Part shown: positions 1-59,091 of the stretch, in pieces
How the letters are laid out: every line of letters begins with the position of its first letter
How positions within the stretch are numbered: the stretch's first letter is position 1
Origin: an uncultured Candidatus Saccharibacteria bacterium
Lineage (GTDB): Bacteria > Patescibacteriota > UBA1384 > XYA2-FULL-43-10 > 1-14-0-10-43-13
DNA length: 64,000 bases
Assembly (NCBI GenBank): GCA_964628585.1
Contig: CAZVMH010000004.1
Span: forward strand, 9,977-73,976
Reading direction: 5' to 3'
Program-made: the position numbers and the translations under genes
Notes under the pieces: generated by a model
Seen by the model: only the letters and a program-made list of their open reading frames with translations
Database searches by the model: none
Told to the model about the DNA's origin: nothing

Positions 1-3000
1 GCCGAGGCCGGGCGCATCTGCATTATCATTGGCCGCCCGCCAATCGTTCTGGCATTTTTGAATAACAGAATTAAGCAAATTAATATCGGCGCCCTTCTTA
101 TCATTGTCGGCTTTGGCAATGCTTGCATTGGCTACATCGTCGGGAGTTGCGCTGTCTGCAGAGCCCTTATCAATAATCTTTTGGTTTGCCTGCATCGCCA
201 GCATTAGCTGGTTTGTGTCAATGCCAGAAGCGGCTTTACTGTCTGCGACACAATGATCGTCTCTGATACGATTATTCTGACTACTATAAACTCGACGATA
301 TAGTTCCGAAAGCGTTAGTGTCCCTTCCAGTTTGAATTGGTCATCTAGCTTTGTGGCAGCAATCTCCAAAATAACCCAATGCGCCTGCGAAGGGTCATTA
401 AATATTCGCTGGAATGTGCCGGGCGGAAGCTTTGCCTTGGTATCCAGGTCAAATTGGAATATCATTGAAAGGTTTGAATAAAGCATGCCCCAGTTTTGAT
501 AATATGTTTTATCTCTACATCCTTCACCTGCAATAGGTGACATATTGTCACAAATAAAGAATTTTTTAAAATTTAAAGCGATGTTAGCGGCGGCTTCGGC
601 TCCGTAATCATCCAACCCCAAAGCTTTGCCAAGTTCAACCGCGCCTATCCTGATTGCCATTTTGCTACCAATTTTCTCGTTATATTGATCAGGAGAAATT
701 TCTCCACGAGCAAGTTTGGCTGTCTCACCAAAATCGAGACCAAAAGCGTTATCGAGACTATCCCAGAAAGTTTTAAATTGATTTATCTCGTAGTAGTAAT
801 CTCTCATTTTTTGATCAGTTCCATTTTGCAATGCGCCAGCACCATATGCGCTTAAAATCTGCTGAATATATTCAGGCAATTTCGAATCTATATTGGCAAC
901 AGCCGTGGTTGCCTCTGCTGTGAGAGCGGGGGCGCTGGAAAGATAGTTCACTATTGAGCGAAGTTGGAAGGTGCCAGTAGCCGACTTAAGCGAATTGGCT
1001 CTACTAACGCCCAATATTGCTTCCAGATCGTTTCGAGATATTGTCGTAAGCGTTTCGCCGTTATCTAATCTTTCAGTATAAATTGGAATCTTAAAGATGA
1101 GGGCAAAGTTCATTGGTTTGATGTGAGCGATTAATTCACTCATAGAAGCGCCCCTAAACATACCCTTTGGCAGGCCAAGCGTTTCTTCAATTTTGGATTC
1201 CCCGATATTTTGTAGGAGATCGGCCGGACTACTGGCTCGTATTGGTACCGAATTGAGACCAACAAAACTACCCAACATTTTGGCACCAGCATCTGCTAAT
1301 GCGCACTTTAAGTTTTTGGGGTTTAGTGCAGAGACAATTAGTTGTGTTGTGCCAGGATTAAAACCAAGAGTCTCGTCTAAATAATATGCACCGATTCGAT
1401 AAAGTGGCTTTAGATCACCATTTAAAATTGCGTAAAGATCGTTACCATTAAATATTCCAGGAGGAATATCGATACCAAGCGAGGTAAAGAGCTTCCAACT
1501 TAAAATTCTCTTTGATTCAGCGTGACCAACAGCTCTTTTATATGTCGCGAGAGGAGTTTGATCGTTTTCGCGCGAAAGAAGTCTTTTTAATACATCAACA
1601 TTTAAATAGGCATCTCCCAAAGTCGCCAAAGTCAATCCACCGTCACTTATGGAGCTATATTCCTCATCCGTAAACACAGAGTTGATGGTGCCATTTATAA
1701 ATTGTATTAAACGTTCGCGAATGTTTCCAGTACTCTTTAATGATTCAGAAACAGACAGGCCTGCATGAGTTTTAATTGCTATTGCAAGGGTATCTAAAAC
1801 ATCAGTAAATTGATCGGCACTATGGTCAACAGAATAGGTCTGGGCATCGGTTTTATTTTTAAAGCAATGTTTACCAACTTTATCAACAATACAATAGGTA
1901 TTGCCCTCAAAAGTAGTTTGACGATAAATATCAGTTCGGTTTTCAAAATCTTCCCAAGTAACTTTATTGTCTGTCCCCGTGTAAGTGATTGGACAGGAAT
2001 TTTCATCTCCTCCGTCGCCGTACTGTTTCAAATACGGGTTTGTTTCAATATAATCGGCATCAAGTCCTTGTCGCCCAAGTTGGTTTAATTTAATGTCGCC
2101 ATTTATTAGCTTCAATAATACATCTATCAAATCTGTTCCGGAGAGATTAAGACTCTGTGCCAACTGTTGCTTTTCGTTTATTTCAAGCAAATCTGCTCCG
2201 TTACTCAAAGGGACTTTCTGTTTCTTAATTAAAGCAGCGGTTGAACCTTCTTTGATACCCAATCTGCGGTCAACTTTAACAGCCTGATTATTGGCTGTGG
2301 TACTAAATCCGCCTGCTTCCAATGCAGCTAAGCGACCTGAAATGCCCAGTCTGAACATAATGTCATCTCCGGCGCCCCTAATAGCATCATTATATCCTCG
2401 ACTGACAATATTATGGGCTACATCACTTAAATCCCTCTCGTTCATTAACTGGCCACCGTTGTTAGCCCATTCGGTTACATATTCATCGAGCCAATTCAAC
2501 TTTGCCGTGTCAACAAAAGATTCAAATAGGTTCGGATCATTTGATTTAACCCATTTAACATAGTCTTCGGGTTTAGAGGATGGGATCGATGTGCTACCAC
2601 CCCAAGCAAAATATGAACGCCATGTTTCTATCTGACTTTCAGCGTATTTAACAAGATTTTTATAGTCTTTTTTGAAATCGGGGATTTTGTCATTTAATAC
2701 ATCCCCCTGAAAATAAAAGCTTGGCATTGAAAACTCTTGCTCAATCTTGGCCTGACCGATTGCAAGATAAAAAGCATCAATGTTTTTAATGCCAGCCTTT
2801 TCATAGTTTTGAACTAAATAATAAATAGAATTTTGAGGCAATCCAAGACCGTTTTCTGCTTGAGCCGCTCCAATTCGAACAAAGAAATCGGTTGCGCTAA
2901 TGCGGTGCGTTACGAGATCAAACAATGCGGCTGGAGAAAAGCCGGTTGATCTAATTCCGCCGGAGCTTGAGCCATTGCTACTATTTTGTGCGCTTGTAGT

Positions 3001-6000
3001 TCCACTATTTCCAGCGCTGGTCCAAGTTGAAGAGAAACTCTGGCTGGCATTAATCTGTTTTATGGTCAAAAGATCGGCCGAAGCGATTACTTTTCCGGCC
3101 ATAATTTCTGAAACAGCACGAATTAGTTCATTGACGTTCAAAATAGTGGTATCAACTTTTCTGGCTTTACTCTGATTTTGAATTCGAATATTTTCGCAAT
3201 CAGCAAACAATCCGTCAACTTCATAAGCAATACTTCTGGCGGTCTCTTTCGCTCCTGCTATTGTAGTAACATTCAAGTTATTAAACGCACGTAATATTGC
3301 ATTAATGTGTTCATTTATTGGTCCCAGTTCGACACCAGTTTCGTTGTTCCAATCACCTTTAATTTTTTGTGTTAATTCTAAAACACGACCCACTCTTGAT
3401 AAATAAAAATTAATTTCAGGGTTATTCGTTTGAAGTTCTGGGGTAGTATCCATCAGATCAATTTTTACTTTTCCATCACTATCTAAGAGCTTGTTTGCCA
3501 CACCGTAATAAAGTAGTTTGCTTCCAATCCGAGAAAAAACTGAACGAGGACTGGCTAAAGCACATCCGAACATTCGCGAAAGGTCACCGGATACGAGACC
3601 GAGGGAAAATGCTCGCTCTTCGTTAATGTCAACATCAAGATCTTTAATTTCAGTTGATCCATCAGCTTTTTTAATTGTAACAGTAACTTTCTTAGTAATT
3701 TTATTATCGGGAATTTGACAGGTTGTTTGATCTGTTTTTGTCAAATTTTCTAAAAGCCAACTTTGAGCTGCAGCGGCTCCAATGTCGTCTGGAGTAGCAG
3801 TAATATTTAGATCTTTCATTGCAAGATATTGTTCTTCGCTCAAATTGCCACCACCTTTACCGTAAAGGTATTTGCTGAATGTTAAGTTCTGCTGAATTAC
3901 ACGAGAAAGAGCGAAACGGCCAACAGTAATAAAACCGGTCGCTTTGCCCAAAAGAGCGTCGCTCCAGGCACCGTCTGGAAGATTGTAAGCGGCATTATTC
4001 GCTGAGAGATAATTAAATCCGTTTATAGTATCGTTTTTTCTGGTTTCACCAACTTTCTCAACAAAATCAAATGGAGAAATGTTCCCCGATATTAGCTGCT
4101 TAGCTGTACCGGGCGTAATGTGCAAAGTATTATCAATATAGGTTGGATCCTGAAACAAAACTCCAGCACGAAAGTCACCCAAATTTTTTTTCAATTCTTT
4201 ATAGTTAGCCCCACGAAAAGAATTTTTAGGAATATTTAGACCCTTTTCAATGACGCGATTGCCTATCAAAATACTCAATGATTGTACTGTAAGACCCTCC
4301 TCATATTCTTTGAGATCGCCTGGGTCAAGGTTCATTTCAAATTCAAGTTTGCGCTTACCGGCATTGGTGAGTGTTCCCTCCAAATCATAGACCTTTGCCC
4401 CGCCAGCTGATTTTTTATAATTCAGAGATTCAAGAGAGCCAAATGGAAGTCCAGCTCTTTTTTCCAGTGCGGTTTCGCCAATAATTACCTGTAAATCTTC
4501 TAAAGAAGTAATACTACGACCAATAAAAATCTCACGAGGCAAACCGAGATAGTCGGCAAAATACATTGCGCCGAGTTTTTGAAGAGTGTCTTCAGTATTG
4601 AATCCGGCGAAATTATGTCCGGGAGAGTTCAAAAGCTGGCCAAAAATAGTCTTACCAATAATACCAACGATGTCGGAGAAATTGGCATCAGAAAGATCTC
4701 CGTCATAATTTGTAACATCACCATTTAAATCATCAACTAGCGTACGCATCTCATCATTAGCGATATCTTTCATAATCCCCATCATATCAACCGAATTCCC
4801 CCCTGACTGATCATAGCTGGCCGATGTTTGCCAAGCCAACTTGATTGGGCGAAGAACTTTTTTTTCTCTGGTGGTTGAGCTTCCGCCGATTCTACGTTTT
4901 TTTACAACCGTAAGGGTACAACGAATGTCATCAAGCTCCATAATATCAACGGCTTGACCTTTGGTATGCGCAGAGATGTTTCTATCTGGCGGTTGTGCTG
5001 TGGCTAAATATCCTGTTTCAGCATTATCTAGACTCTCCAAATAGGCATCGTAGGTATCGCCATTTTCATCTTCGGCTGTAATATTGGCATTGGCTTGGTT
5101 GCTGTCTTCTTCTGAGCCCTGTGCAACTCCACACTCAGCCGCTGTCATGTTGGCGCAATCGACCGCTCTAGTTTCTGTAATTTTTTGACCGAGTGAAAGG
5201 CGGACAGCTTCAGATTCATTGGAATAGGGTCGAGCGGTGTCCTGAATTAGCTTCTTAACTCTTACGCGCCAATGACCTGCTCCTCCCTGATTTTTTGGAA
5301 TAACCAAATAATTGAGCATTTTTATTATTCGAATATCAATCGTAGTCGATTCGAGTGCGGAAGTTATTATTTGATCTAAATATTCGCTATCGGTTTCGAT
5401 TAATTGTTGAGTATCAAGTCCGGTAATACATTTTAGATTTTTATACTGTTCGTTGCCAACGGCTAAATTTTGCATAACAGGATCAACCCCAGAATCAGCA
5501 TTATTTTTTAATTCGTTTTTTTCCTGATTTAAAATTGTTCGTGGATCAGGACTTTTCCCCCAAGCCTTTTGTGCCTCATAGACTAAGTTTTGGAACTGGT
5601 TGTAATCTCTAATTCTGATTTTGGCCAGTTCATCTATCGAGGCGGGACGGAAACTGGTCGGTAAAAAGTTGTACATCGCTTCGAGATCGGTATAAAAATC
5701 AGGCAAAAGATCAGAGAGGCAGTAAAGACTACGAATGGCAGCCAAGTCAGTCCTGTTAAATATCAACCGAGCGTCCTGCATACCCATAATTTGATCTTCA
5801 AAACCAAGTTCGTAGCTAGACGCGTTTTCAGCGCTATTATTTACCTGGCTAGCCAAACTTTGTATCGCTACTGGTACGGTACTTTGAGTAATCTCTGTTT
5901 CGTCCCCTCCATCGATGTTTATATTTTTGGTAGTGTCGTCGGTTTCTGTTGTGGCCTTAGCTTTATCTGGTAAAAAAATAAAAACAGGCTCGACGATTAA

Positions 6001-6048
6001 AAGCGCCATCAAGAGAGAAATTATTGATTTTTTAAAGAAAGATAGCAT
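1..6048 (-). CDS. Giant secreted repeat-containing protein, over 2000 aa in window; partial, C-terminus lies beyond window start; last gene of the T4SS-like operon
   Basis: Manual minus-strand translation from ATG at complement(6046..6048) gives MLSFFKKSIISLLMALLIVEPVFIFLPDKAKA (signal peptide), then an uninterrupted frame to position 1. Recurring LGLPxxxF(R/I)G-type internal motifs. No competing ORF over 100 aa in any frame across 6 kb. Absent from the ORF track only because no stop codon falls inside the window. Start overlaps the stop of the upstream M23 gene (TAAATG). Confidence 0.6.
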   Translation of the reverse strand, partial: MLSFFKKSIISLLMALLIVEPVFIFLPDKAKATTETDDTTKNINIDGGDETEITQSTVPVAIQSLASQVNNSAENASSYELGFEDQIMGMQDARLIFNRTDLAAIRSLYCLSDLLPDFYTDLEAMYNFLPTSFRPASIDELAKIRIRDYNQFQNLVYEAQKAWGKSPDPRTILNQEKNELKNNADSGVDPVMQNLAVGNEQYKNLKCITGLDTQQLIETDSEYLDQIITSALESTTIDIRIIKMLNYLVIPKNQGGAGHWRVRVKKLIQDTARPYSNESEAVRLSLGQKITETRAVDCANMTAAECGVAQGSEEDSNQANANITAEDENGDTYDAYLESLDNAETGYLATAQPPDRNISAHTKGQAVDIMELDDIRCTLTVVKKRRIGGSSTTREKKVLRPIKLAWQTSASYDQSGGNSVDMMGIMKDIANDEMRTLVDDLNGDVTNYDGDLSDANFSDIVGIIGKTIFGQLLNSPGHNFAGFNTEDTLQKLGAMYFADYLGLPREIFIGRSITSLEDLQVIIGETALEKRAGLPFGSLESLNYKKSAGGAKVYDLEGTLTNAGKRKLEFEMNLDPGDLKEYEEGLTVQSLSILIGNRVIEKGLNIPKNSFRGANYKELKKNLGDFRAGVLFQDPTYIDNTLHITPGTAKQLISGNISPFDFVEKVGETRKNDTINGFNYLSANNAAYNLPDGAWSDALLGKATGFITVGRFALSRVIQQNLTFSKYLYGKGGGNLSEEQYLAMKDLNITATPDDIGAAAAQSWLLENLTKTDQTTCQIPDNKITKKVTVTIKKADGSTEIKDLDVDINEERAFSLGLVSGDLSRMFGCALASPRSVFSRIGSKLLYYGVANKLLDSDGKVKIDLMDTTPELQTNNPEINFYLSRVGRVLELTQKIKGDWNNETGVELGPINEHINAILRAFNNLNVTTIAGAKETARSIAYEVDGLFADCENIRIQNQSKARKVDTTILNVNELIRAVSEIMAGKVIASADLLTIKQINASQSFSSTWTSAGNSGTTSAQNSSNGSSSGGIRSTGFSPAALFDLVTHRISATDFFVRIGAAQAENGLGLPQNSIYYLVQNYEKAGIKNIDAFYLAIGQAKIEQEFSMPSFYFQGDVLNDKIPDFKKDYKNLVKYAESQIETWRSYFAWGGSTSIPSSKPEDYVKWVKSNDPNLFESFVDTAKLNWLDEYVTEWANNGGQLMNERDLSDVAHNIVSRGYNDAIRGAGDDIMFRLGISGRLAALEAGGFSTTANNQAVKVDRRLGIKEGSTAALIKKQKVPLSNGADLLEINEKQQLAQSLNLSGTDLIDVLLKLINGDIKLNQLGRQGLDADYIETNPYLKQYGDGGDENSCPITYTGTDNKVTWEDFENRTDIYRQTTFEGNTYCIVDKVGKHCFKNKTDAQTYSVDHSADQFTDVLDTLAIAIKTHAGLSVSESLKSTGNIRERLIQFINGTINSVFTDEEYSSISDGGLTLATLGDAYLNVDVLKRLLSRENDQTPLATYKRAVGHAESKRILSWKLFTSLGIDIPPGIFNGNDLYAILNGDLKPLYRIGAYYLDETLGFNPGTTQLIVSALNPKNLKCALADAGAKMLGSFVGLNSVPIRASSPADLLQNIGESKIEETLGLPKGMFRGASMSELIAHIKPMNFALIFKIPIYTERLDNGETLTTISRNDLEAILGVSRANSLKSATGTFQLRSIVNYLSSAPALTAEATTAVANIDSKLPEYIQQILSAYGAGALQNGTDQKMRDYYYEINQFKTFWDSLDNAFGLDFGETAKLARGEISPDQYNEKIGSKMAIRIGAVELGKALGLDDYGAEAAANIALNFKKFFICDNMSPIAGEGCRDKTYYQNWGMLYSNLSMIFQFDLDTKAKLPPGTFQRIFNDPSQAHWVILEIAATKLDDQFKLEGTLTLSELYRRVYSSQNNRIRDDHCVADSKAASGIDTNQLMLAMQANQKIIDKGSADSATPDDVANASIAKADNDKKGADINLLNSVIQKCQNDWRAANDNADAPGLG

Positions 6049-7572
6049 TTACGGTATTCTCATTACTGCTTTCATTTTGCCCCAAAGAATGCTCTGTTCT
6101 GTGTTGCCTGCTGCTTTCCCAGTTTCATATTCACTTCTAGTTACAACAACACACTGTCCGCTTCCCATTAATTCAAAATGAACATGACCTACAGAAGAAA
6201 TTTTTCCTATTGGTTTGCCCGCTTCTACTTGATCACCTTTTTTTACGGTTTGTTCTAAATGGGCGTAAACTGCAGTATAAATTCCATTTTTTATTTGTAA
6301 GCCACTTTTTGCTCTGTCATCTATAACTTCACCGCCAAAGATTGCATTAACCGGTGTTCCCGACCCAGCACTTAAATCGACTGCATCACAAGTATTCTGA
6401 ACGAACTGGATGTAAGTTCTAGCAGAACCATGAGGGGGTTTGGGGCAATTTTTGCCATTTTTTACATCAGCGCTACAAGGATTTAAAGGGGAACCAAAAT
6501 GTATACTTCCCCCAATGCTTGGCTTAAGGCAAAATTCAGAATTACACTCAGTTTTAATTGAGGTTGGCATTACAGGAACACTTAAAAGAGAAACAACAAG
6601 TGCTTTTATATCACCAATTAATTTTTTCCCAGCTTCTTCAGTTCTGGAAGTTCGGTAAGAAGTAATCTCTTCCAAAATTGAATCTATTTGGGCAACTTTA
6701 TCTGCATACTGACCCAATTTCTTAATTTCTCCAAGTTCTGTTTCCAAACCACTTAAAGCGGTATCTGAAAGAGCCTTAGTAGCTGAATCGTCTTTGCTGA
6801 ACAATAGTAATCTTTGTATCCATTCTTTATCAGAAAGAGGATTGGTTGCTTGAGTAATAGTTGAGCCGGTCGAGCTGACTTTAGTGTGTGAACCAAAAAC
6901 AACGCTCCAAAGAAGTACAATAATTAAAACAAGCAATACTAGCCCGACGATAATTGCCATTACTATCCAGCCGTATGGTGATGCGAAAAATGCGGTTACG
7001 GCTCTTTTCGCTAATTGAGCGACTGCTTTTTTGGCGAACTTCATCGCTTGGTCGATAGCTTGTTTCGTGACTTCTTTGCCTTTGTCAACGGTCCCGCCTA
7101 ATGCGCCCGTGGGTTGTGCTTTTGTTGTTGAGACATCTGGTTGTATTGCTGGTTTTTTAGTTGCTTCAATTGCTGGTCCACCAGGAAGTATTTCCTTGGC
7201 AGGAGAGATTGCGGGCTGTTCTCCAAGCACTTTTTGCTGTGCAACATCTGCCTGCTCTTGACCAGCAGTTCTTTGTGCCTGTTGTTTTCTTTGATCTATT
7301 GGTTGCCCAAATTGTGATTCTCCTTCATTTGTTTCTCCTACATCTTCTGTCTGCTCCCCAGTATTGCTCCCTTCTTCACTAGAGGATCGATTTAAGGATG
7401 GAGTATCTACTCGACGGATGTAGTTATCAAAAGGAGTTGCTGCAATTTTGCGAATATCTTCTTTTTTCTTCCTTGCCAAAACAAAATCACCCGCTTTTCT
7501 TGCTTCAATATGTTCTTTCTGAAGCTGTTGCAGGCGTCCCCAATACCTCTGTTTAAAATCTCTATCTGCCAC
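6049..7572 (-). CDS. Membrane-anchored M23 family peptidoglycan endopeptidase (T4SS-associated cell-wall hydrolase, VirB1/TcpG/CwlT analogue)
   Basis: C-terminal M23 signature (HGSARTY...CDAVDL...YAHL...GHVHFE). N-terminal coiled coil, acidic low-complexity segment and one TM helix (GWIVMAIIVGLVLLVLIIVLLW). Confidence 0.85.
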   Translation of the reverse strand: MADRDFKQRYWGRLQQLQKEHIEARKAGDFVLARKKKEDIRKIAATPFDNYIRRVDTPSLNRSSSEEGSNTGEQTEDVGETNEGESQFGQPIDQRKQQAQRTAGQEQADVAQQKVLGEQPAISPAKEILPGGPAIEATKKPAIQPDVSTTKAQPTGALGGTVDKGKEVTKQAIDQAMKFAKKAVAQLAKRAVTAFFASPYGWIVMAIIVGLVLLVLIIVLLWSVVFGSHTKVSSTGSTITQATNPLSDKEWIQRLLLFSKDDSATKALSDTALSGLETELGEIKKLGQYADKVAQIDSILEEITSYRTSRTEEAGKKLIGDIKALVVSLLSVPVMPTSIKTECNSEFCLKPSIGGSIHFGSPLNPCSADVKNGKNCPKPPHGSARTYIQFVQNTCDAVDLSAGSGTPVNAIFGGEVIDDRAKSGLQIKNGIYTAVYAHLEQTVKKGDQVEAGKPIGKISSVGHVHFELMGSGQCVVVTRSEYETGKAAGNTEQSILWGKMKAVMRIP

Positions 7573-7618: not shown

Positions 7619-8863
7619 TCAACTATCGAGATTCAAATAATATATCTGACCGCCAGATTGATACAATATTATTTTACCATTTACCACTGTTTTTAATAAG
7701 TTAATTTCGTTCTTACTAACATTGGAGAGCGAGTTTCCATTGATTGTTTTAGTTTCTGTGTTGAAAAAGAAAAGTTTCTCTTGAAAAAGCATATCTGGTG
7801 CTGAGAGTACAAGGGTGGTGGAGTCAATCCATGCGACTTTAGTGGGGGAGACACGAATGTCTAAAGTGTTTTTATTGCCTCCATCTTTGTCCATTACTGA
7901 AATTATCGAGTTAACGTTTTTTGCTGGATCTTCTGAATAAGAAAAATATAGGATCTTCTGGCTGTCGGGGGAGAAAACAGCGTCAACCTGATCGCCAGAA
8001 TCTGTCAGAGTTTTTAAAGTTAAATTATATCGTGAAAGCAGATAAATTTTATTAGTATCATAGTTAAGACTTTGAGGAATAATTAAAAGATTTTCTCCAT
8101 TTGGTGACCATCGCAAAAGTGGGTTTTCAATACCATATTCAGCCAAATTTAAGATTCTAGTCTGCTGCGTGGCGCCAGCATTGGAAAAAATTAAGGTCTG
8201 TTCGGGATAATAGACGTAAGCAATTTTTGCGCCATCTGGTGACCAAGCTATTGAACCAATATCATTGCCCCAAGGCGTTTCGGTTTGATGAACAAAATCA
8301 TATTTTTTGAAATCAAAGATACTTATGGCATTACCTTTTCTGAAAAGAGCTAAATCTTTATTTGGTGACCAAATTATTTCCTCTATCCCAGAAAGAATAG
8401 GTGCGGTAATGGCCTGAGTATTTTCAATAATTTTTTGATTATCAAGCATGAAGATTGATTTATAAAGAGTTCTTCCTGCATCACCTAAATGGTAAACCTC
8501 TGAATCACTGGCTTTGTCTAAAAATATTCCTGAGCCCAAGATCTTAGTTTCTCCAAGAGGCTTCAAATCATAAGTTAATGTACTTGGTAAAAATCTTTTT
8601 GCCTTAATAGTGGCGGAAATACCAATGTATCCTTCGGCTTGTACGTCAATTTTATGATTACCTACTCTAATAATCTTTTTTGATAGTCCATGGCGATTTA
8701 GTTTGATAGGCGCATTATCAAGAAGAACAATCGCAGTTTTAGGAGATATATTGATTGTAACTATTGATTGAGAAAGAATATTAATTAAAAAACAGATAAA
8801 TAACACTATTAAAAGCGCAAAAAAGTAATACTTTAAAATCAATTTTTTCTTATGTCTGTGCAT
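7619..8863 (-). CDS. TolB-like PD40 beta-propeller protein with N-terminal membrane anchor
   Basis: N-terminal TM (YYFFALLIVLFICFLINIL). Repeated WSPDG/WSPNG/FSPDS PD40-type blades (IAWSPDGAKIAYVY, LRWSPNGENLLII, AVFSPDSQKILYFS). Confidence 0.6.
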   Translation of the reverse strand: MHRHKKKLILKYYFFALLIVLFICFLINILSQSIVTINISPKTAIVLLDNAPIKLNRHGLSKKIIRVGNHKIDVQAEGYIGISATIKAKRFLPSTLTYDLKPLGETKILGSGIFLDKASDSEVYHLGDAGRTLYKSIFMLDNQKIIENTQAITAPILSGIEEIIWSPNKDLALFRKGNAISIFDFKKYDFVHQTETPWGNDIGSIAWSPDGAKIAYVYYPEQTLIFSNAGATQQTRILNLAEYGIENPLLRWSPNGENLLIIPQSLNYDTNKIYLLSRYNLTLKTLTDSGDQVDAVFSPDSQKILYFSYSEDPAKNVNSIISVMDKDGGNKNTLDIRVSPTKVAWIDSTTLVLSAPDMLFQEKLFFFNTETKTINGNSLSNVSKNEINLLKTVVNGKIILYQSGGQIYYLNLDS

Positions 8864-8869
8864 TTTTTA

Positions 8870-10264
8870 TCATGAACATTTATTACCTGTAGCGTTTACT
8901 TGGGACCATATATATTCCATATATGTTTTGCCAGGGTCATCCTTTCTAGATGAACTGCATCCAGGGGTTCCTTCTCCTCCTCCGGTTTGATAATGACCAA
9001 AAATTCCTCTTTGAGCGGAAAAATTTGTAGCATTCCCAATTTCTCTTGTGCTGTACCCTCCATTAATTAGATTGTTTATAACCTGGACAACAACAGCTTT
9101 TTGCTTTTCGTTTTTCATTAATTCGTCGCCTACACCTGCAATTTCTATACCAATTGTAAAGTTGTTTGCGGATTTTTTCGTATTACCTACTGTTGCCGTT
9201 CCGGAACCGCTTTGCTTTATATTAAAAGGTACAAATTGATAAACTGTTCCATCGCTGTCAATAAGCAAATGAGTGACATTTGGTGGCGATAATCCCATCC
9301 AGTAGTCTATTATATCTTTTTTAACTCCTTCTTTGCCGAGGGGCTTGTCGGCTGGGACTGATTTGCCTGTCCAGTGCAATGTTACTCCATGAGAATTAAT
9401 ATTATAATCAGCTCCTTTTCGTTTGCTTAACCAGTTTTTAAGATTTGCTTGATTCATAAATGAAGTATCGTAAGGACCGATTGGGTCACCTGTTGCTTTG
9501 CTTGCAAACCCGGTGTCACACTGTACTTGATCAGGAACGAGATCACTTAAAAGTTGTATTCTTGCTTCTTTTGAGTCAGAAACATATCCACGTTGATCGA
9601 AACTATCCTTTCTGGCAGCAGCAACATAATGATAAAGAAGCCTTGTCCATGTATTTTCTCCGGAAGGGGTACTGTACACGCCCTCACTATCCATCGCTTT
9701 CTTGATTAAAGAGATAGCGCAAGATTTTTGTTTCTCCCAACCACTATCGTCTCCGCCTACGGAGTAATGGCCACACCCAAATGCTTTGTAATCACTTCTA
9801 AAAGTCTGTTCTCCATACCAAAAAGAAATTAATACTGCTGGGTTGATGCCTGCGTTAGATGAGGCGGAAATTATATCTTGAATTTTATCTTTTACACCAC
9901 CAATCGAGGGGTATCTTTCTTTTAAGGTATTTATCACCTGATCTGCGCTTGTAATGGTAGTTATGTCAGAGAAGGCCTCATTTTTTAAAGAACAGCCCGT
10001 CCCACTTACTCCACTGCCAAATTTGGGAGAATTTTCGCCCCATGGGACTATACCGAAAATAGCAGCTCCAATGCCAAAACCAAATAGTATTAAAACACCC
10101 AAAATTGCAACGGCGATGGAAACATTGACCGTTGTCGCACCTGTTTTTGTAAAAATTTTTTTAGAACCCATCCCATAATTGTTTTTTGAAACGAAAGCGT
10201 TTTGGGTAGGACAGAAATTGCGGGTGGCAGAGGAAGCGTAGTCACCACTACGATGACGAAGCAC
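8870..10264 (-). CDS. Bifunctional cell-wall hydrolase: N-terminal putative glycosidase-like domain plus C-terminal N-acetylmuramoyl-L-alanine amidase (Amidase_2/PGRP-like) domain, membrane-anchored
   Basis: Signal-anchor TM (VSIAVAILGVLILFGFGIGAAIF). C-terminal Amidase_2 motifs (VTLHWTG, THLLIDSDGTVYQFVP, NNFTIGIEIAG, GHYQ, KDDPG). Confidence 0.6.
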   Translation of the reverse strand: MLRHRSGDYASSATRNFCPTQNAFVSKNNYGMGSKKIFTKTGATTVNVSIAVAILGVLILFGFGIGAAIFGIVPWGENSPKFGSGVSGTGCSLKNEAFSDITTITSADQVINTLKERYPSIGGVKDKIQDIISASSNAGINPAVLISFWYGEQTFRSDYKAFGCGHYSVGGDDSGWEKQKSCAISLIKKAMDSEGVYSTPSGENTWTRLLYHYVAAARKDSFDQRGYVSDSKEARIQLLSDLVPDQVQCDTGFASKATGDPIGPYDTSFMNQANLKNWLSKRKGADYNINSHGVTLHWTGKSVPADKPLGKEGVKKDIIDYWMGLSPPNVTHLLIDSDGTVYQFVPFNIKQSGSGTATVGNTKKSANNFTIGIEIAGVGDELMKNEKQKAVVVQVINNLINGGYSTREIGNATNFSAQRGIFGHYQTGGGEGTPGCSSSRKDDPGKTYMEYIWSQVNATGNKCS

Positions 10265-10325: not shown

Positions 10326-12182
10326 CTACCCATTTCCTTCCAAAATTTGCTTCGGATCACTTGTAATTATTTGATCCTCGGTATATGAAGCAACGACTTT
10401 AATGGCAACGTGATTTAAGCCAGCAAAGAAAAGTCCTTCGCCAACGTCTGATTCAAGAAGAAGATATTTTTCGCCCTCGGTTAAATTGAAAACCTCAGCA
10501 ACCAAATCAACAGAAGCGGTAGATTGTTTAAAGAGCACTTGCATGGCAGAGTTTGAAACAACAGCTTTACCGTAACGACTGGCCAGGAAATCCTCTACAT
10601 CTTGGCTGATAATTGTTAGCCCTAAATAATACTTTCTAGCTCGTTTAGCCAAACCGTGCAAAAATTTAGCTGAATCCTCATGTTGCATCATCCACCAAGC
10701 TTCATCAATAATCATAATTCGACGCTTTGTCGTCATGCGAATCTTGGTCCAAATATAATTTAGGATAGTGTACATAGCAATTGGTCGAAGCGCCTCCTCA
10801 AGATCACGAACAGAAAAGACGACAAATCCTGGTTTAAGTTCAAAATTGGTTCTTTGATTGTAGAGCGAAGCAAAGGTGCCCTCTACAAACCTTGAAAGTC
10901 TGGAACGAAGCGATTCGGTTCCACTCATATTTGAGAGAACATTGTATAAGTCTTGCATGACCGGTGGCTCGTTTTCTTGGCTCTCTGGATCGATTGTAAT
11001 ATCTTTTATAGCATAAGTCTCATAAAGTGCTCTCTCAATAATTGAATCTTCTTCAGGGGAAAGACCATTTGCCATTAGATTAATCAATCCATGTACAGAA
11101 GCAACAGTAGAACGAAGTAAATCTTCACCCGACTCCTCAGCGTTTCCAACTGGTAAATCGAATGGATTAATTCTTTTATCGGAGTTAAGGGAGATTTCAA
11201 GATAACTTCCTCCTACGGCGGTACAGAGTGATTTGTACTCATTTTCTGGGTCAACTACAATTACATCGGTTCCAAGCATCAAATATCGCAATGCCTCGAG
11301 TTTTACATAGTAAGACTTACCACTACCAGAGGTTGCAAAGACGACCGAATTGGCGTTTGGTAAATTGAATCTGTCAAATATAATTAACGAATTATTGTGA
11401 CGATTAATTCCGTAAAGAATGCCATCATCCTGGGTTAACTCGGATGAAACAAACGGAAAGCTGGAAGAAAGAGATCCTGTATCAAAATTTCGCAAAATGT
11501 TTAAACGGTCTGACATAAGTGGCAGAGTAGAGGCAAAACCCTGTTCCATTTGAAAAAGAGATTCTTTGGTATAGATTAAAAGACCACCTAGTGTTGATTC
11601 AAGCTGTTCGGCTACCGTTTTGAGTTCATCGGCAGAGTTGGCGTAAATTGTAAAATACAAACCAAATTGAAAAAGTCTGACTTCACCTCTCTGTAAAACA
11701 TCTCGCAATGCCTCAACATCACCCAGTGCAGTCTCAATTTCTGGGTCTCTTGGAGCGCCTCGTTCTTGTTCAACCGACATTGTTGATTGAAGTTTGCCCA
11801 CTTGTGTTCGAAGCTCGCTCATAACATTTTTTGATTCGAGCGGATGTATATACATGCCCATATCGAGGGTTAGGTCGTAATTGATAATAGGGGAAAGCCA
11901 ATTGGTCTCGATATAGCGGGGGTAGGTGAAGACAAATAGTGTTTTAACAAATTTATTTCCAAGTTGAAGATGGTACGGGGTCATAATGAAAGCGGAAGGT
12001 GCTATAACATCGCGTATTGAAGTACTGCCCCTTTTTATATCTTCAGGTAGTTCAATCTTATTTGATTCCCTTTCGGCAATGTTTTTTTGAGCCATTGCCC
12101 GAGCGTCGGTATTTGCAGGAGAATTAGATTGGTCTTCTGTTATTGGAGGAGTTAAGTTTTGTTGTGTTTGATCGTCAGCCAT
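10326..12182 (-). CDS. virB4: Type IV secretion ATPase VirB4/TraE/CagE family
   Basis: Walker A ATSGSGKSYYVK, VVDPENEY, Walker B MIIDEAWWM. Middle-domain pattern FVFTYPRYIETNWL typical of the CagE_TrbE_VirB family. Confidence 0.9.
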   Translation of the reverse strand: MADDQTQQNLTPPITEDQSNSPANTDARAMAQKNIAERESNKIELPEDIKRGSTSIRDVIAPSAFIMTPYHLQLGNKFVKTLFVFTYPRYIETNWLSPIINYDLTLDMGMYIHPLESKNVMSELRTQVGKLQSTMSVEQERGAPRDPEIETALGDVEALRDVLQRGEVRLFQFGLYFTIYANSADELKTVAEQLESTLGGLLIYTKESLFQMEQGFASTLPLMSDRLNILRNFDTGSLSSSFPFVSSELTQDDGILYGINRHNNSLIIFDRFNLPNANSVVFATSGSGKSYYVKLEALRYLMLGTDVIVVDPENEYKSLCTAVGGSYLEISLNSDKRINPFDLPVGNAEESGEDLLRSTVASVHGLINLMANGLSPEEDSIIERALYETYAIKDITIDPESQENEPPVMQDLYNVLSNMSGTESLRSRLSRFVEGTFASLYNQRTNFELKPGFVVFSVRDLEEALRPIAMYTILNYIWTKIRMTTKRRIMIIDEAWWMMQHEDSAKFLHGLAKRARKYYLGLTIISQDVEDFLASRYGKAVVSNSAMQVLFKQSTASVDLVAEVFNLTEGEKYLLLESDVGEGLFFAGLNHVAIKVVASYTEDQIITSDPKQILEGNG

Positions 12183-12203: not shown

Positions 12204-13208
12204 TTATTTTTCTTTTGTTGGCGGAACAATAGTCGGTGCTTGTGCCATGCTTTGATTCGTTGTAGTTGGTGCTTGCCCTTGTTCTGCAGGAGCTGATGCA
12301 GGCAGTTCTGCCTTTACTGGAGTTTGTACCAAAGCTTGAGGGGCGACCGGCATAACTGTATTTGGCGCAGGTGTTTCTGTGGGCGCCGAAGAAGGTGCTC
12401 CTCCTTTTTCGACTTCTTTTTCTGCTTCAAGCTCTCTTTGTTTTGCTGCTTTTTTCTGTTGGTCTTCAACTAGGGCAGAATTATCAATAACGTTTTCTTC
12501 TGGTTGTTCTTCTGTAGAATTCTCTTTTTCTTGGTTAATATTTTCCTTCTCTGTCACTAGAGAAGAGGTTAGTTCCTCAACGTCGGAAAATCTTTCAATA
12601 TCTGCTACCTCTGGATTATATATTCCATAGAACAACTCGATTATTTCCTCAGTTGTAAGCTGAACACAATGAAGGCCCAAGCTTCCCAACCCACTTGCAA
12701 CAGTGTTAGCTCTTTCTGTCAGTTGGTCTTTGTAGCGTTTAAATGTTGTGTCTGCAATCTTTATGCCACTGCCTTCTCCTTTGCCACCAAATATTTTACC
12801 GAAAACAGATGGTTTTTTAATCTCGATTGGATCATAGGGGACCACAACATAGAAATTCTTTTTCATAATATTGGCCATGTTGACTAACTCTCCAACGAAA
12901 TCGATGTAGTCTTCCATTTGTACCCGTAAAAGCTCATTATTTTGCTTATCTTTTAAAACACTTAATTTTTTAATGTAGGGATTTAAATCAAGTCTCTTTG
13001 ATCTCATGACAATTTCTATCGGAAAATGGAGGGAATTTAGAAAGCCCTGATACTGAAAGATAATTGAATTTTGTTCCTCTTCACTTTTGAGAGAGAAATT
13101 GGTTACGCCAACGTTAAAAATAATGCGATATCCACCATTTGTCGTAATAACAATGCCGTCTTTAATCCCCGCAAGATCAATAAATTGTTGAGTCGCTGAT
13201 TGATTCAT
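12204..13208 (-). CDS. T4SS-associated protein; N-terminal about 190 aa resembles the extreme N-terminal domain of TrbE/VirB4, followed by a Glu/Lys coiled coil and a Pro/Ala/Thr-rich disordered tail
   Basis: N-terminus GIKDGIVITTNGGYRIIFNVGVTNFSLKSEEEQNSIIFQYQGFLNSLHFPIEIV matches the DG...G.y..f.l.G.d..s.s.eE...l...l...l pattern at the start of TrbE/VirB4. Lies immediately upstream of virB4 in the same frame, separated by two in-frame stops. No TM segment. Confidence 0.45.
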   Translation of the reverse strand: MNQSATQQFIDLAGIKDGIVITTNGGYRIIFNVGVTNFSLKSEEEQNSIIFQYQGFLNSLHFPIEIVMRSKRLDLNPYIKKLSVLKDKQNNELLRVQMEDYIDFVGELVNMANIMKKNFYVVVPYDPIEIKKPSVFGKIFGGKGEGSGIKIADTTFKRYKDQLTERANTVASGLGSLGLHCVQLTTEEIIELFYGIYNPEVADIERFSDVEELTSSLVTEKENINQEKENSTEEQPEENVIDNSALVEDQQKKAAKQRELEAEKEVEKGGAPSSAPTETPAPNTVMPVAPQALVQTPVKAELPASAPAEQGQAPTTTNQSMAQAPTIVPPTKEK

Positions 13209-13252: not shown

Positions 13253-13525
13253 TTAATATCTTGTTTTGTCCTTCATCGTCATCAGCCCTGCGGCCAGAAT
13301 GCTCGCAATTTCGTTCGATTCTTTTAGAAGTACATCTGTTTCACTTTCAATATCCGATTTTGCTTTTATCGTAAGCTCAAGCCAGAACCCCGTTTCATTT
13401 GCCGATTTCAATGCTATTTCAAAGAATTTTATATAATCTCTCTTCGAACTGGACGCTTTCGCTTCTCTGACGTTTGCACCTATTGATGTTCCTGATCTTA
13501 AAAGCTGATCCGCTATTGCCCACAA
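13253..13525 (-). CDS. Four-helix-bundle family small protein (TIGR02436 / 23S rRNA IVS-protein-like), apparently N-terminally truncated
   Basis: Family-like pattern SIGANVREAKASSSKRDYIKFFEIALKSANETGFWLEL. An in-frame stop lies directly upstream of the Met, so the first helix is missing relative to typical ~115 aa members. Confidence 0.45.
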   Translation of the reverse strand: MWAIADQLLRSGTSIGANVREAKASSSKRDYIKFFEIALKSANETGFWLELTIKAKSDIESETDVLLKESNEIASILAAGLMTMKDKTRY

Positions 13526-13650: not shown

Positions 13651-14061
13651 TTATTTCTGCTGTGGGTCAATTTCTTTTGCTAACTTTTGTATATCTTGGC
13701 GTGAATAATTTTTTGCTACGACAGCTGGTGTTTTATTATCAATTTTTGGTTTATAGACTTCAACATTTAAATCTGCAGAATTTTCATGATGCCAGAGTCT
13801 TTGTTTGGGAGTAGAGGAGTATTCTATGACGGAAAGAAAAAAATCTAAAAAAGGACGCTCATTAATTTTTAAAAAAATCATAGCGGCCACAAAAAGGCCG
13901 ATTGGAATGGCAATTAAATAGGCAAGAATCTTTGGTATTCCAGACATAATAATTCCATAACAAAAACCACCACCAATAACAGCATACATGAACTGTAGCA
14001 TTGTAAGTGGCCCAATAATTCTATCTTGCATATCAATATTTTGTGGTACTTTGTAGCGCAT
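13651..14061 (-). CDS. PrgI/VirB3-like small membrane protein of Gram-positive-type T4SS
   Basis: MRYKVPQNIDMQDRIIGPLTMLQFMY N-terminal motif (VP.d...e..i.GplT.rQ) followed by two TM helices. Position upstream of virB4. Confidence 0.55.
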   Translation of the reverse strand: MRYKVPQNIDMQDRIIGPLTMLQFMYAVIGGGFCYGIIMSGIPKILAYLIAIPIGLFVAAMIFLKINERPFLDFFLSVIEYSSTPKQRLWHHENSADLNVEVYKPKIDNKTPAVVAKNYSRQDIQKLAKEIDPQQK

Positions 14062-14435
14062 TTATCCCGTCAAATACGACTTAAGTCGCTTACTAATAAA
14101 TTGTTTACCAAAAAAAGTTTTAAGATATTTTTCACGATGTGTCGCGTCTTGTTGATTAAGACATCCTTCAAACTATATTAGCTTGAGGGGCAATCGATTT
14201 TTTGTAAACGGCACTTTGCCTGCTAGGCGTAACTTAAGTCGTAAATTTAGGTTTTTTGTATAACCCGTGTATCTCTTTTTGTCTTTCTCTGGTTTCAAAA
14301 CGTAGACGTAATAAAACATCAGTGTCCTAAATTTATTTGACTGGTTGAACCCTCCTAGTACTAAAAAATATACCCCGTTAATTGGATTATATCATAACTA
14401 AAATATCAATGACAAAAAATATAGAACAAAAATCT

Positions 14436-15890
14436 TTAAGCTTGTTTTCCGACTATACCTGCTAAGTCGGGAGCCTCTCCAGCCATTGCTTCCATTAACC
14501 CAAGAACATTCCTCCAAATACTTTCACCACCACCCTTCCCTTGTGGCGAAGCTTGGGCAAAACTTTCTGTTGGCTCATAATAGCCCCAATTGTCCTCATC
14601 TTGTTCGCCGTGTTTCTCTAAGAAATCTTTGTGAGACGAAACTTTTCCCTTGTTTTTTTCTAGCTCGCTTTTAATTTTTTTATAAAATATTTCGTAGGTC
14701 TTTTTTGCAATTTCTGGCATATTCTCGAAGTTAGTTCCGGCACTCAAAGCACATTTTTCCATAAATGCTGGCGCGGTACCATCTGTTTGCAGATATATTG
14801 CTGAAAAATCGGTTATAATCTCTTTAGCAATAGTCAGCTTTCTCATCTCAATAAATTGTTCTTTAGTTAAACCAGGCATTGTTTTTTCAGCTTTGGGAAA
14901 ATCTTCTTCGATTTTATCCATTGAAGCCAAAGTATTTTGGATATGTTCTGTCAAGAATGGAGAAACTTCGGTTCTATTTTCAACAATGATATCGCAGAGA
15001 CCAATCAATTCTTTATTTTCAGTTAAATATCTCTCAGTAAAGGCATGAGACATTTCATGATTTATGAGATGAGCATAACCAATTGGACGCCCATCCTGAG
15101 TTTTGGCATTATCTTTCAAAGTACTGTCGAACACAACAATTTCACCCGTATCTCTATCCCAATAAGCCACAGAGTCATAACCACAAGTGTCCATCATCTT
15201 GCGAATCTTTCGATCTCGTTCTGACATATTAGCTAGCTGTTCCTCTGTCGGAGGAGGCTCTTTAACAGGTATAGCCTCAATTGTAACTCCAGTGACTAAC
15301 TGAGGAATATCGCTAGCAGTAAGATGACCATTGATTACAGAGAGACAAATTGCTTTTTTGATTTCAATTTGTTTTGATTCAATATCTTTAAACTCTGGAT
15401 TGTCTTTTAATTTTTCGACTGCTTGATCAAATTTTTTGAATATTTCTGAGAGTTTGGTAATTAGTTCTGCTGTTTGATCTAGCTTTTCTTGAATGACGCC
15501 ATCTTGTTCTTCCATGGCTTTTTTAAATAACTCAAAAATTTGTGGGTCCATCTCTGTTCCAGACTTATCCATCATCCAGTCTAAGACCAAATTTGCATTG
15601 GAAGCCGTTATTTCACTTTTTCTAGCTGAAGCTTCCGCAGTTTTTTCTTCTTCTGTTGGTGGTGTCTCCGCTGTTTCTGCAGAAGTGCCACTTTCCGTTT
15701 TTTCGGCCTCTGGTTCAGTAGCTACATTTTCTGGTTGAACTGGATCTGTTGTTTCTGTTTGTCCGGGGGTGGTTCCTTCTGCTACTGGCATCTGATTTCC
15801 GTGAGCATCTAAAATAGGAACAGTATTTTCCTGCCCAATTGGTTGCCCATATTTATTAACTATTCCTGATGGCGTTACTGTTTCATTCAT
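14436..15890 (-). CDS. Soluble acidic protein with an HExxH zincin-like metallopeptidase motif (candidate secreted effector or processing protease)
   Basis: INHEMSHAF motif in the centre. No TM segment. Acidic Thr/Glu/Pro-rich N-terminus. Embedded in the T4SS operon. Confidence 0.45.
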   Translation of the reverse strand: MNETVTPSGIVNKYGQPIGQENTVPILDAHGNQMPVAEGTTPGQTETTDPVQPENVATEPEAEKTESGTSAETAETPPTEEEKTAEASARKSEITASNANLVLDWMMDKSGTEMDPQIFELFKKAMEEQDGVIQEKLDQTAELITKLSEIFKKFDQAVEKLKDNPEFKDIESKQIEIKKAICLSVINGHLTASDIPQLVTGVTIEAIPVKEPPPTEEQLANMSERDRKIRKMMDTCGYDSVAYWDRDTGEIVVFDSTLKDNAKTQDGRPIGYAHLINHEMSHAFTERYLTENKELIGLCDIIVENRTEVSPFLTEHIQNTLASMDKIEEDFPKAEKTMPGLTKEQFIEMRKLTIAKEIITDFSAIYLQTDGTAPAFMEKCALSAGTNFENMPEIAKKTYEIFYKKIKSELEKNKGKVSSHKDFLEKHGEQDEDNWGYYEPTESFAQASPQGKGGGESIWRNVLGLMEAMAGEAPDLAGIVGKQA

Positions 15891-57811: not shown

Positions 57812-57916
57812 TTTGTTATCAAGAGAGACGTTAGGGAATTGGCCCAATGACCGTCCAGCAACCCTAGGCTTAGCCGTTAGGGTGCTAAATCCAAGCCGTA
57901 AGGCAAGATAATACTA
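57812..57916 (+). promoter_or_regulatory. SAM-I (S-box) riboswitch aptamer upstream of metK
   Basis: TTATCAAGAGAGACGTTAGGGAATTGGCCCAATGACCGTCCAGCAACC...GGTGCTAAATCC...GATAAT matches the SAM-I consensus (UUAUCAAGAGNGG...GGGA.UGGCCC.AUGA...CC.GCAACC...GGUGCUAAUUCC). P1 is gttatc / gataat. Confidence 0.85.
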
Positions 57917-57957: not shown

Positions 57958-59091
57958 ATGGAGACAAGGCTTTTTACTTCAGAATCTGTCACTGAAGGAC
58001 ACCCGGATAAAGTTGCCGACCAGGTATCCGATGGCATACTTGATGCGCTGTTAGAACAGGATCCAAGGAGCAGAGTTGCAGTTGAGACATTTATAACCAA
58101 CGGCTTGGCTGTTGTGGCTGGTGAAGTAACAACTAAGGCAAAAATTGATATGGCAAAAATTGCCCGCAAAATTATCGCTGAAATTGGTTACGATGGCTGC
58201 GGTTTTCATTTCTCAAAAAGTGGAGTGATGGTTGCGGTTAAAGAACAGTCTCCAGACATTGCTCAGGGCGTTGATAGCGATGATTTAGAGAATCTTGGAG
58301 CAGGCGATCAGGGTATGATGTTTGGTTATGCTTGTAATGAAACACCAGAGCTAATGCCTCTTCCAATCATATTGTCCCAAAGACTTTGTCAGAAATTAGC
58401 CGAAGTGCGAAAGAAGAATGTAATTCAAGGCCTTTATCCGGATGGAAAATCGCAAGTTACTGTAGAATATAAAGACGGTCTTTCTTCTAGAATCCATACG
58501 GTATTAATTGCCTCCCAACACGCAGAAGAAAAAGAACATAAAAAATTAAAGGAAGAGATCACCAACAAAGTGATTAAACCGGTTCTAAAAGAATATGGCT
58601 ATGAAATTGACAGCAAGACTAAGGTTTATGTAAATACAACCGGAAAATTTGTAGTGGGCGGTCCAGAGGGCGACACAGGGTTGACCGGACGCAAAATCAT
58701 TGTAGATACCTATGGTGGAATGGCACGTCATGGAGGCGGAGCATTTTCGGGCAAAGATCCATCTAAAGTAGATAGAAGTGGTGCATACGCTTCTCGTTGG
58801 GTCGCTAAAAGCATAGTTGCCTCGGGCTTGGCCGATAAGTGTGAGGTTCAGTTAGCATATGCTATTGGTAAACCAGAACCACTTTCTATATACGTAAATA
58901 CATTTGGCACAAGCGAATACTCCGATGAAGAAATTGTGGCAAAAATTAAAGAGAACTTTGATTTGAGACCAGGCATGATTATAAAAAATCTAAAATTACG
59001 CCGTCCTCAATATCAACAGATCGCGGCCTACGGCCATTTCGGCCGACCAGAGTTAGATTTGGCTTGGGAAAAAGTGAAAAAAATCAAATAG
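57958..59091 (+). CDS. metK: S-adenosylmethionine synthetase
   Basis: [59 protein letters not shown] motifs. Confidence 0.95.

Follow-up and report, generated by a model that had tools for sequence, protein, structure and literature searches.

What is encoded in the first 6 kb of a 64,000-nucleotide stretch of DNA from an uncultured Candidatus Saccharibacteria bacterium (assembly GCA_964628585.1, contig CAZVMH010000004.1, forward-strand positions 9,977 to 73,976; hereafter the window), and what might its product do for the T4SS (type IV secretion system) whose genes lie next to it? We found that region 1..6048 encodes, on the minus strand, the first 2,016 residues of a conserved protein of Patescibacteria (Berkelbacteria type) of ~2,740 residues, and that this giant gene is the last gene of a chromosomal MPF_FATA-like T4SS operon. 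The T4SSs of Patescibacteria are chromosomal, often located near dnaA and usually without a relaxase; their VirB4 forms its own clade related to MPF_FATA, and their parts include TrsD, PrgI, VirB6, arrays of VirB2-like pilins and varied hydrolases (PMC12102498). The same survey states that 'No adhesins, such as PrgB, were detected' and that VirB8 was mostly undetectable (PMC12102498). In S. epibionticum the T4SS is essential, and its role has been called completely unknown (PMC10633639, PMC11665869, PMC12857230).

Translation of complement(1..6048) gave 2,016 sense codons and not a single stop. At the local GC content of ~0.41, where ~6.1% of random codons are stops, the chance of an open run of this length is ~1e-55. 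A reading of the DNA made from the sequence alone (the sequence-only reading) had proposed just such a frame of more than 2,000 codons, and had ascribed its absence from the track of open reading frames (ORFs) to its running off the window edge. Both points held: the frame is missing from the track because the ORF list omits ORFs that run off the end of the source. Nor did shorter genes in other frames compete with it, since the only other ORFs listed in 1..6048, four on the plus strand of 88-92 amino acids (aa), are without support and homologues align with the long frame over its entire length.

The giant gene starts at the ATG at 6046..6048 (minus strand). The gene caller used on a sister contig began the gene at Met14, but an N-terminal pattern kept in 45 of 46 homologues (see below) favours the upstream ATG. 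The TAA of the preceding gene, which encodes an M23 peptidase, occupies 6049..6051 and directly abuts this ATG, giving a TAA-ATG stop/start junction (6046..6051, minus strand; ccgTAAATGcta) with a 0-nt spacer and both genes in the same frame. The sequence-only reading had described the two genes as coupled through overlapping codons; the tight junction stands, whereas the overlap does not. At its other end the gene is cut by the window edge. The last residue of the query corresponds to about residue 2017 of the best homologue, P0001, and ~725 residues (2.2 kb) therefore lie beyond the edge. Two Logan contigs that carry an identical M23 gene both end earlier than the window, and the missing 3′ end was not recovered there.

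Among 5.8 billion proteins searched there were 46 homologues; with a single exception their lengths are 2,444-3,144 aa, and the 40 best cover 85-100% of the query. P0001 (2,742 aa) is 51% identical over 100% of the query in a collinear alignment. No Pfam domain was found in the 46 homologues, and those with a name are each a 'hypothetical protein' of Patescibacteria, Berkelbacteria or unclassified metagenome-assembled genomes (MAGs). In a GTDB scan the close family occurred in 19 species, from Berkelbacteria, unclassified Patescibacteria and MAGs auto-labelled Saccharibacteria. When a profile of the family-defining core, described below, was used in an exhaustive hidden Markov model (HMM) search of 1.84 billion representatives, only 184 proteins matched at E <= 1e-3. 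Nearly all of these are 1,400-3,300 aa long, with the core 130-500 residues from the N-terminus, and most combine a signal-like N-terminus with a '...H-h-x-aromatic' C-terminus. The giant protein thus represents an unannotated superfamily of ~184 clusters at 50% identity, without a recognisable fold. One distant member lies on an 11-kb contig labelled Verrucomicrobiae, probably a binning label. A plasmid or phage origin was rejected, as tblastn with the first 1,000 residues returned nothing from PLSDB and INPHARED.

The link to the T4SS comes from gene order. In every homologous locus with upstream DNA the order was PrgI, TraC-like, VirB4, hydrolase, β-propeller, M23 or other peptidase, giant gene. 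Upstream of the giant gene, on the same strand and in the same order, the β-propeller was found in 24 of 26 loci and VirB4 in 21 of 26; the rest lack upstream DNA. Downstream follow DciA, recF, dnaN and dnaA; the dnaN-dnaA pair was seen after the giant gene in loci L003, L004, L005, L025 and L027; the window does not extend to that side. In seven of nine loci the preceding stop is overlapped by 1-8 nt, or is no more than 2 nt away from the start of the giant gene, and gaps of up to 19 nt occur elsewhere; from this closeness we infer that the two genes may be translationally coupled.

The same arrangement extended to distant members of the superfamily. All five that we placed in their genomic context (1,453-2,591 aa) lie in T4SS clusters, four of them on the same strand and directly downstream of the VirB4/β-propeller block. 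P0095 (1,518 aa) follows TrbL_3, an unassigned gene (x), PrgI, TraC-like, VirB4, x and x, and is itself followed by x, recF, dnaN and dnaA; P0104 (2,339 aa) follows a β-propeller and x. P0128 (2,591 aa) lies beyond a lysozyme/amidase gene and before DciA, dnaN and dnaA, with PrgI and T4SS pilins nearby. In the locus of P0129 (2,294 aa) the order is PrgI, TraC-like, VirB4, further genes, a C39-like gene, further genes and the giant gene, and P0098 (1,453 aa) stands between a TraC-VirB4 fusion followed by NlpC/P60 on one side and a C39/C70-like gene on the other. That fusion joins the TraC-like/TrsD-like protein and VirB4 in one ORF of 892 aa (locus L029, 6055-8733), which agrees with the remote homology that has been reported between TrsD and the N-terminus of VirB4. 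Arrays of VirB2-like T4SS_pilin genes lie across the dnaA, rnpA, yidC block from the giant gene (L004 28038-28544, L025 22399-24486, L027 23370-24724), so that the replication origin has T4SS genes on either side. In L003, L004, L005 and L025 no VirD4 was seen. No relaxase was seen nearby, the window not having been systematically scanned for one.

In the window the operon reads, from the giant gene upstream and all on the minus strand, as follows. The M23 peptidase (6049..7572) is membrane-anchored according to Pfam and a transmembrane (TM) scan, with a TM helix at residues 203-221 and the M23 domain at 396-473; its N-terminal part of ~200 residues before the TM helix, presumably cytoplasmic, is without a family match, and its listed start is GTG. 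Next come an N-terminally anchored β-propeller (PD40/Tricorn-like, 7619..8863), the gene conserved upstream of the giant gene, and an N-acetylmuramoyl-L-alanine amidase (Amidase_2, 8870..10264), membrane-anchored by family match and TM prediction. The VirB4-type T4SS ATPase (10326..12182) matched P-loop_TraG at 1.6e-28 (score 100, cut-off 25.8 bits), AAA_10 and DUF87. A TraC-like/TrsD-like protein (12204..13208) was paired by phmmer with the PF26593 TraC-like ORFs of sister loci, and the VirB3-like membrane protein PrgI (13651..14061) matched at 4.6e-10. Between these two lies a bAvd-like gene of the 23S-rRNA-intervening-sequence four-helix-bundle type (13253..13525); a bAvd-type gene occurs towards the end of the L003 locus as well, and a link to diversity-generating retroelements is conceivable.

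Between the giant gene and PrgI, neighbouring genes are separated by 0-125 nt. A gap of 374 nt lies upstream of PrgI (14062..14435) and holds the best σ70-like site of the region, TTGTCA-18-TATAAT with TG (14386..14415, minus strand); this consensus match is a candidate for the promoter of PrgI and the genes down to the giant gene. Farther upstream, on the same strand, are genes for a 484-aa protein (14436..15890), an 894-aa polytopic VirB6/TrbL-like protein with at least five TM helices (15921..18605; phmmer match to an L025 ORF annotated PF19590 TrbL_3) and a 512-aa exported protein (18683..20221). The sequence-only reading had taken the giant gene for the terminal gene of a T4SS-like operon, and the identical order in all homologous loci examined bears this out.

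We then considered how the protein is built. Residues 1-32 (5953..6048, minus strand) form a signal-peptide-like or signal-anchor segment with a hydropathy peak at 8-26. In the N-terminus, MLSFFKKSIISLLMALLIVEPVFIFLPDKAKA/TTE, a KK n-region is combined with a hydrophobic core and an AxA site (AKA), and the pattern M-x(3-6)-[KR]K, hydrophobic stretch with central [E/N/Q]-P, AxA recurs in 45 of the 46 homologues, in agreement with the signal peptide proposed earlier. The hydrophobic stretch, with its family-wide [E/N/Q]-P in mid-segment (…LIVEPVFIFL…), is long for a signal peptide; the segment may thus not be a cleaved signal but a signal anchor, or a signal for specialised processing.

Beyond it, the protein appears to be almost wholly helical. 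An AlphaFold 2 (AF2) model of residues 85-450 contains a confident bundle, residues ~95-255 (5284..5766, minus strand) being all-α, with helices only, at a predicted local confidence (pLDDT) of 80-97. Residues 101-200 weakly resemble 1118-1200 (HMM cross-matches, E down to 1.6e-5). A long-helix, coiled-coil-like stretch spans residues ~880-1000 (3049..3411, minus strand), where the sole PDB profile matches were to coiled coils and designed helical bundles, at E >= 0.01. The last 1,200 residues of P0001 were modelled at a mean pLDDT of 76.8 as almost all helix.

The C-terminal part, off the window, is seen in the homologues. Some 140 residues before their C-terminus lies a hydrophobic region, 27-55 aa long (median 32) and with Pro/Gly at its centre; apart from it, the hydropathy scan picked out only the N-terminal segment. 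In the AF2 model of P0001 this region forms two helices followed by a small α/β domain, and the conserved α/β tail of ~140 residues ends '...NPQTVAWTHIGF' ('...THIGF'). In the wider family the tail variants end HVGY, HVRW or FGGLF; across the superfamily the ends share an invariant His in '...H[IV]x[FYW]' or '...HVSFGGLF'. A search for the C-terminal domain as a separate annotated protein failed, its profile finding three short fragments of the same family and no recurring Pfam family. Conservation extends over the whole length of the giant protein and is most marked at both ends.

On the strength of its invariant synteny, its topology and its size we favour, tentatively and at a little less than an even chance, the view that the giant protein belongs to the Patescibacteria T4SS as an extracellular subunit, anchored in the membrane, with a structural or host-facing role. 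Its sequence features suggest that it would be exported via Sec by the N-terminal signal-like segment, and the models that it would be built almost wholly of α-helices. The homologues indicate that a C-terminal hydrophobic hairpin or TM segment, together with the conserved ~140-residue tail, could hold it on the cell membrane. This anchor and the invariant C-terminal domain make a membrane-tethered protein most likely, rather than a freely secreted one; the sequence-only reading had spoken of a giant secreted protein. Co-produced stoichiometrically as an extracellular structural T4SS subunit, the protein might serve as a long scaffold of helices, spanning the envelope or projecting from it where the neighbouring hydrolases open the wall, and facing the host cell. 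The N-proximal core would be a ligand-binding or catalytic head, and the giant protein would not itself be cargo of the T4SS.

Very large T4SS membrane proteins with huge hydrophilic extensions have a precedent in the extended VirB6 proteins of Rickettsiales (VirB6-4 giants; PMC7648143, PMC12857230). Those, however, carry at least five N-terminal TM helices, whereas the giant protein has only the signal-like segment and one C-terminal hydrophobic region. The window protein gave no TrbL Pfam match, and the operon contains, besides the giant gene, a VirB6/TrbL-like gene (15921-18605).

Several points weigh against a structural subunit. Its connection to the T4SS is by gene order alone, and no fold or family match backs any specific structural role. 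The C-terminal 725 residues are known only from homologues, not from this gene, and their hydrophobic region could be either a hairpin or a single kinked TM helix, which leaves the topology ambiguous. The models have a low predicted TM-score (pTM) of 0.43-0.54, so that the overall shape is not defined. Finally, the T4SS locus of S. epibionticum (SEML1_0004-0019), the only one studied genetically, lists no gene above 1,113 aa: downstream of VirB4 it has an essential Hedgehog/DD-peptidase protein of 1,113 aa (SEML1_0007) and a lysozyme/cysteine-peptidase protein of 643 aa, and nothing larger. The giant protein is therefore not universal, but a feature of other Patescibacteria lineages.

Four other readings, which are not mutually exclusive, have to be set beside that of a structural subunit. 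The first, which we consider unlikely, is a surface adhesin or host-recognition protein that projects from the epibiont and plays a PrgB-type role. It would suit a very large, exported protein encoded in a T4SS operon, as well as the epibiotic life of Patescibacteria, in which surveys found no PrgB-like adhesin (PMC12102498); the aggregation substance PrgB of pCF10 is, in the same way, a large Sec-exported surface protein encoded with a monoderm T4SS. The repeats bear on this reading. As noticed from the sequence alone, LGLP-type motifs recur along the protein: an HMM of the repeat unit found eight copies in the window protein as against 0.02 per shuffled sequence, and HMMs built from single 60-residue windows detected other copies at E down to 1e-9. 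In all there are 7-8 dispersed units of 35-40 residues with the pattern 'IGxxxIExxLGLPxGxFxG', each modelled, in a homologue, as helix, LGLPxG loop, helix. Two adjacent helix-loop-helix units of the form 'IGxxxIExxLGLPxGxF' occupy residues 486-553 (4390..4593; this and the following on the minus strand), one unit lies at 594-629 (4162..4269), two more adjacent units at 1054-1129 (2662..2889), the best-scoring copy at 1610-1650 (1099..1221) and a diverged one (LDxKAKLPPGTF) at 1857-1895 (364..480), with a weak further unit at 1550-1567. A related 'LDxxLGLxxGTT' variant is found at residues 636-670, 1255-1280, 1541-1577 and 1764-1796.

These repeats do not look like those of an adhesin. The copies sit at the same positions in orthologues and no DNA-level tandem repeats were found in the giant gene, which points to old internal duplications and not to a fast-evolving array. 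Structure prediction gave models that are almost wholly α-helical, with none of the Ig-like, β-helix or other β-rich repeats that the adhesin idea had called to mind. The protein is not variable but conserved over its full length, above all at both ends; no adhesin family was matched, and none of the 46 homologues has an LPx[TSA]G motif in its last 120 residues. PrgB, by contrast, is anchored to the wall by LPxTG, is β-rich and carries an adhesin domain, and shares no sequence or fold similarity with the all-α giant protein and its C-terminal membrane anchor. Thus an all-α protein with few, ancient repeats at orthologous positions, lacking LPxTG and any β-helix or Ig fold, is not adhesin-like in the classical sense, and the adhesin candidacy put forward in the sequence-only reading is not borne out; contact of the protein with the host is still conceivable.

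The second alternative, which we regard as more doubtful still, is a giant VirB1-like wall hydrolase whose core is a divergent LAS (Hedgehog/DD-peptidase, M15-like) metallopeptidase cutting the peptidoglycan of the producer or of the host. The core that defines the family, residues 232-425 (4774..5355, minus strand; alignment of 135 superfamily members), reads IDIRxxKxLxYLVxPKxQGGAGHWRIKVxRI..SxES, then a variable insert, then NISAHxxGQAVDIxEIDDIRCT....PIKLAWQT. Near-invariant across the 135 members are D238, R240, the GGAG loop, E278, S359, H361, D368 and Q407, whereas conservation of H259 and C377 does not extend to the wider family. The motif S-x-H-x-x-G-x-A-x-D (H361-x6-D368), contained in NISAHTKGQAVDI, corresponds to the first zinc motif of LAS/M15 peptidases and is shared with the M15_4 peptidases that occupy the hydrolase slot in sister loci. 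The only recurrent Pfam matches of the core, both weak and below threshold, were Peptidase_M15_4 (E 0.068) and Extensin-like_C (E 0.083), the latter belonging to the same Pfam clan as the former. Comparison of the core with the M15_4 alignment by hhalign gave 59-61% probability. The genomic setting fits as well: the operon neighbours are hydrolases, and VirB1-like hydrolases (PrgK, TcpG, CwlT) and SEML1_0007, the essential S. epibionticum protein with a DD-peptidase domain that adjoins VirB4, hold the same slot downstream of VirB4 among wall hydrolases.

The match, however, stops at the motif. The hhalign alignment covers those 29 residues only, and no match reached its family threshold. No conserved third zinc-ligand His (in ExxH, DxxH or HxH) follows D368 within the core, and H259 is not conserved. 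The spacing from H to D, six residues in 106 of 129 superfamily members, is 17-25 in ~18 (~15%). Foldseek of the model against PDB found nothing (best E 0.69), the core being modelled at a pLDDT of only 40-70. Since there is no third His, the spacing varies, the match spans 29 residues and no fold is matched, membership of the LAS group is not established. The motif is, moreover, N-proximal and not C-terminal as in VirB1-like hydrolases, which have nothing equivalent to the more than 2,000 further helical residues. The core is best described as a conserved module whose arrangement of residues looks catalytic or may bind a ligand.

The family tails '...DWVHVSFGG / ...WTHIGF' resemble the M15_4 end 'DPMHFQYGG', a likeness without statistical support, and we asked if the N-proximal SxHxxGxAxD and a C-terminal D/WxxH[IV]x[FYW] might make up one split LAS domain completed by the ...xHIGF tail. 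This was not supported: the C-tail profile scored 0.8% in hhalign, and a concatenated profile reached 45.6% probability with the tail His not aligned to the M15_4 DPMHFQYGG. The profile search of PDB with the core alignment gave only a chance-level match (E 1.4) of residues 246-281 ('VYLVTPKxQGGAGHWRIKV') to 'VYFFRTGTQGGAGHWQVLYY' of the Legionella effector RavD (PDB 6nii). H259 is not conserved in the superfamily, and the match is therefore probably a coincidence. The matched stretch may hold the catalytic His of RavD.

Other searches for a known family or fold came back empty. Pfam, NCBIfam and PHROGs gave nothing on the window protein, on P0001, on P0095 or on six other distant members. In PDB profile searches the whole-family alignment returned coiled-coil noise only, and the repeat-unit alignment nothing. 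Foldseek against PDB was not significant for either model, with best E values of 0.69 and 0.28. Against BFVD, the top matches of the C-terminal 1,200 residues were, with few exceptions, to tape measure proteins or minor tail proteins of phages, which raises a third alternative: a tape-measure-like or conduit protein, threaded through the apparatus and inserting its hydrophobic hairpin into a target membrane. Tape measure proteins are, like the giant protein, long and nearly purely α-helical with hydrophobic segments, and many of them combine an all-α build, a hydrophobic hairpin and a hydrolase-like motif. Yet the BFVD matches were not significant (best E 0.007; TM-scores <= 0.10, 0.08 for the match with the best E; rmsd > 40 Å), no tape measure family of PHROGs or Pfam was matched, and the locus has no tail-like genes or other phage context. 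The resemblance reflects a shared long helical build and is not evidence of homology, and we judge a conduit of this kind improbable.

The last alternative, a substrate, effector or toxin delivered by the T4SS into the host, we find very improbable: the gene does lie within a T4SS operon, and large polymorphic toxins are common in contact-dependent systems, but a Sec-type N-terminal signal in place of cytoplasmic recruitment, together with a conserved membrane anchor, disfavours a translocated substrate (the sequence-only reading had named a secreted substrate among its candidates) and makes this the least compatible of the readings; the C-terminus behind the anchor, far from being a variable toxin tip or charged secretion signal, is conserved more strongly than any other part, no toxin or immunity family was matched, and DciA, recF and dnaN, instead of a small immunity-like gene, lie downstream.

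Elsewhere in the window, a XerC/D-like tyrosine recombinase (21826-22854, plus strand), adjoining BacA, marks the upstream border of the T4SS block, and a RhuM/Fic-domain gene (26532-27551, plus strand) lies a few kb beyond it. A large surface-polysaccharide cluster extends over ~29000-63500, with two Polysacc_synt_2 dehydratases, a DegT aminotransferase, a mannose-1-phosphate nucleotidyltransferase and a flippase-like Polysacc_synt. A SAM riboswitch (57813-57914, plus strand; Rfam RF00162, 54.6 bits) lies directly upstream of metK (57958-59091, plus strand). The window has no tRNA genes.

The T4SS itself is thus of a known kind. With the MPF_FATA-like T4SSs described for Patescibacteria (Wang et al. 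2023, PMC10633639; Quinonero-Coronel et al. 2025, PMC12102498) it shares PrgI/VirB3, the TrsD/TraC-like protein, VirB4, the VirB6/TrbL-like protein and peptidoglycan hydrolases downstream, and in homologous loci, on the side that is off the edge in the window, the position is likewise chromosomal and next to dnaN-dnaA. What sets it apart from the published systems is that the last gene of the operon invariably encodes a protein of 2,400-3,100 aa (1,450-3,300 aa in the wider superfamily). A giant terminal gene is unmentioned in the published descriptions of Patescibacteria T4SSs (PMC12102498, PMC10633639, PMC11665869, PMC12857230), a word search of three of these texts being negative too. The giant protein has not been described before, be it as a variant of this system or as something added to it. 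We know of no cultivated, genetically tractable host of the giant gene.

The Patescibacteria T4SS is essential in the one species tested, while its inventories are without an adhesin and almost without VirB8. The giant protein is encoded in the same operon, is probably coupled in translation to the wall hydrolases and is conserved across divergent lineages at lengths of 1,450-3,300 aa. It is therefore an obvious candidate for the part that spans the envelope or faces the host and that the inventories lack, and the superfamily could be added to the profiles used for T4SS detection in Patescibacteria. If the view of a structural subunit is true in full, which is possible but on the whole unlikely, the protein would be a lineage-wide extracellular core subunit of the T4SS, membrane-tethered and all-α, of ~2,700 residues and with a new fold. 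It would then form the wall-spanning, host-contacting part of the apparatus in place of the undetectable VirB8, adhesin and outer components, and its head would be a new wall-binding or wall-cutting module.

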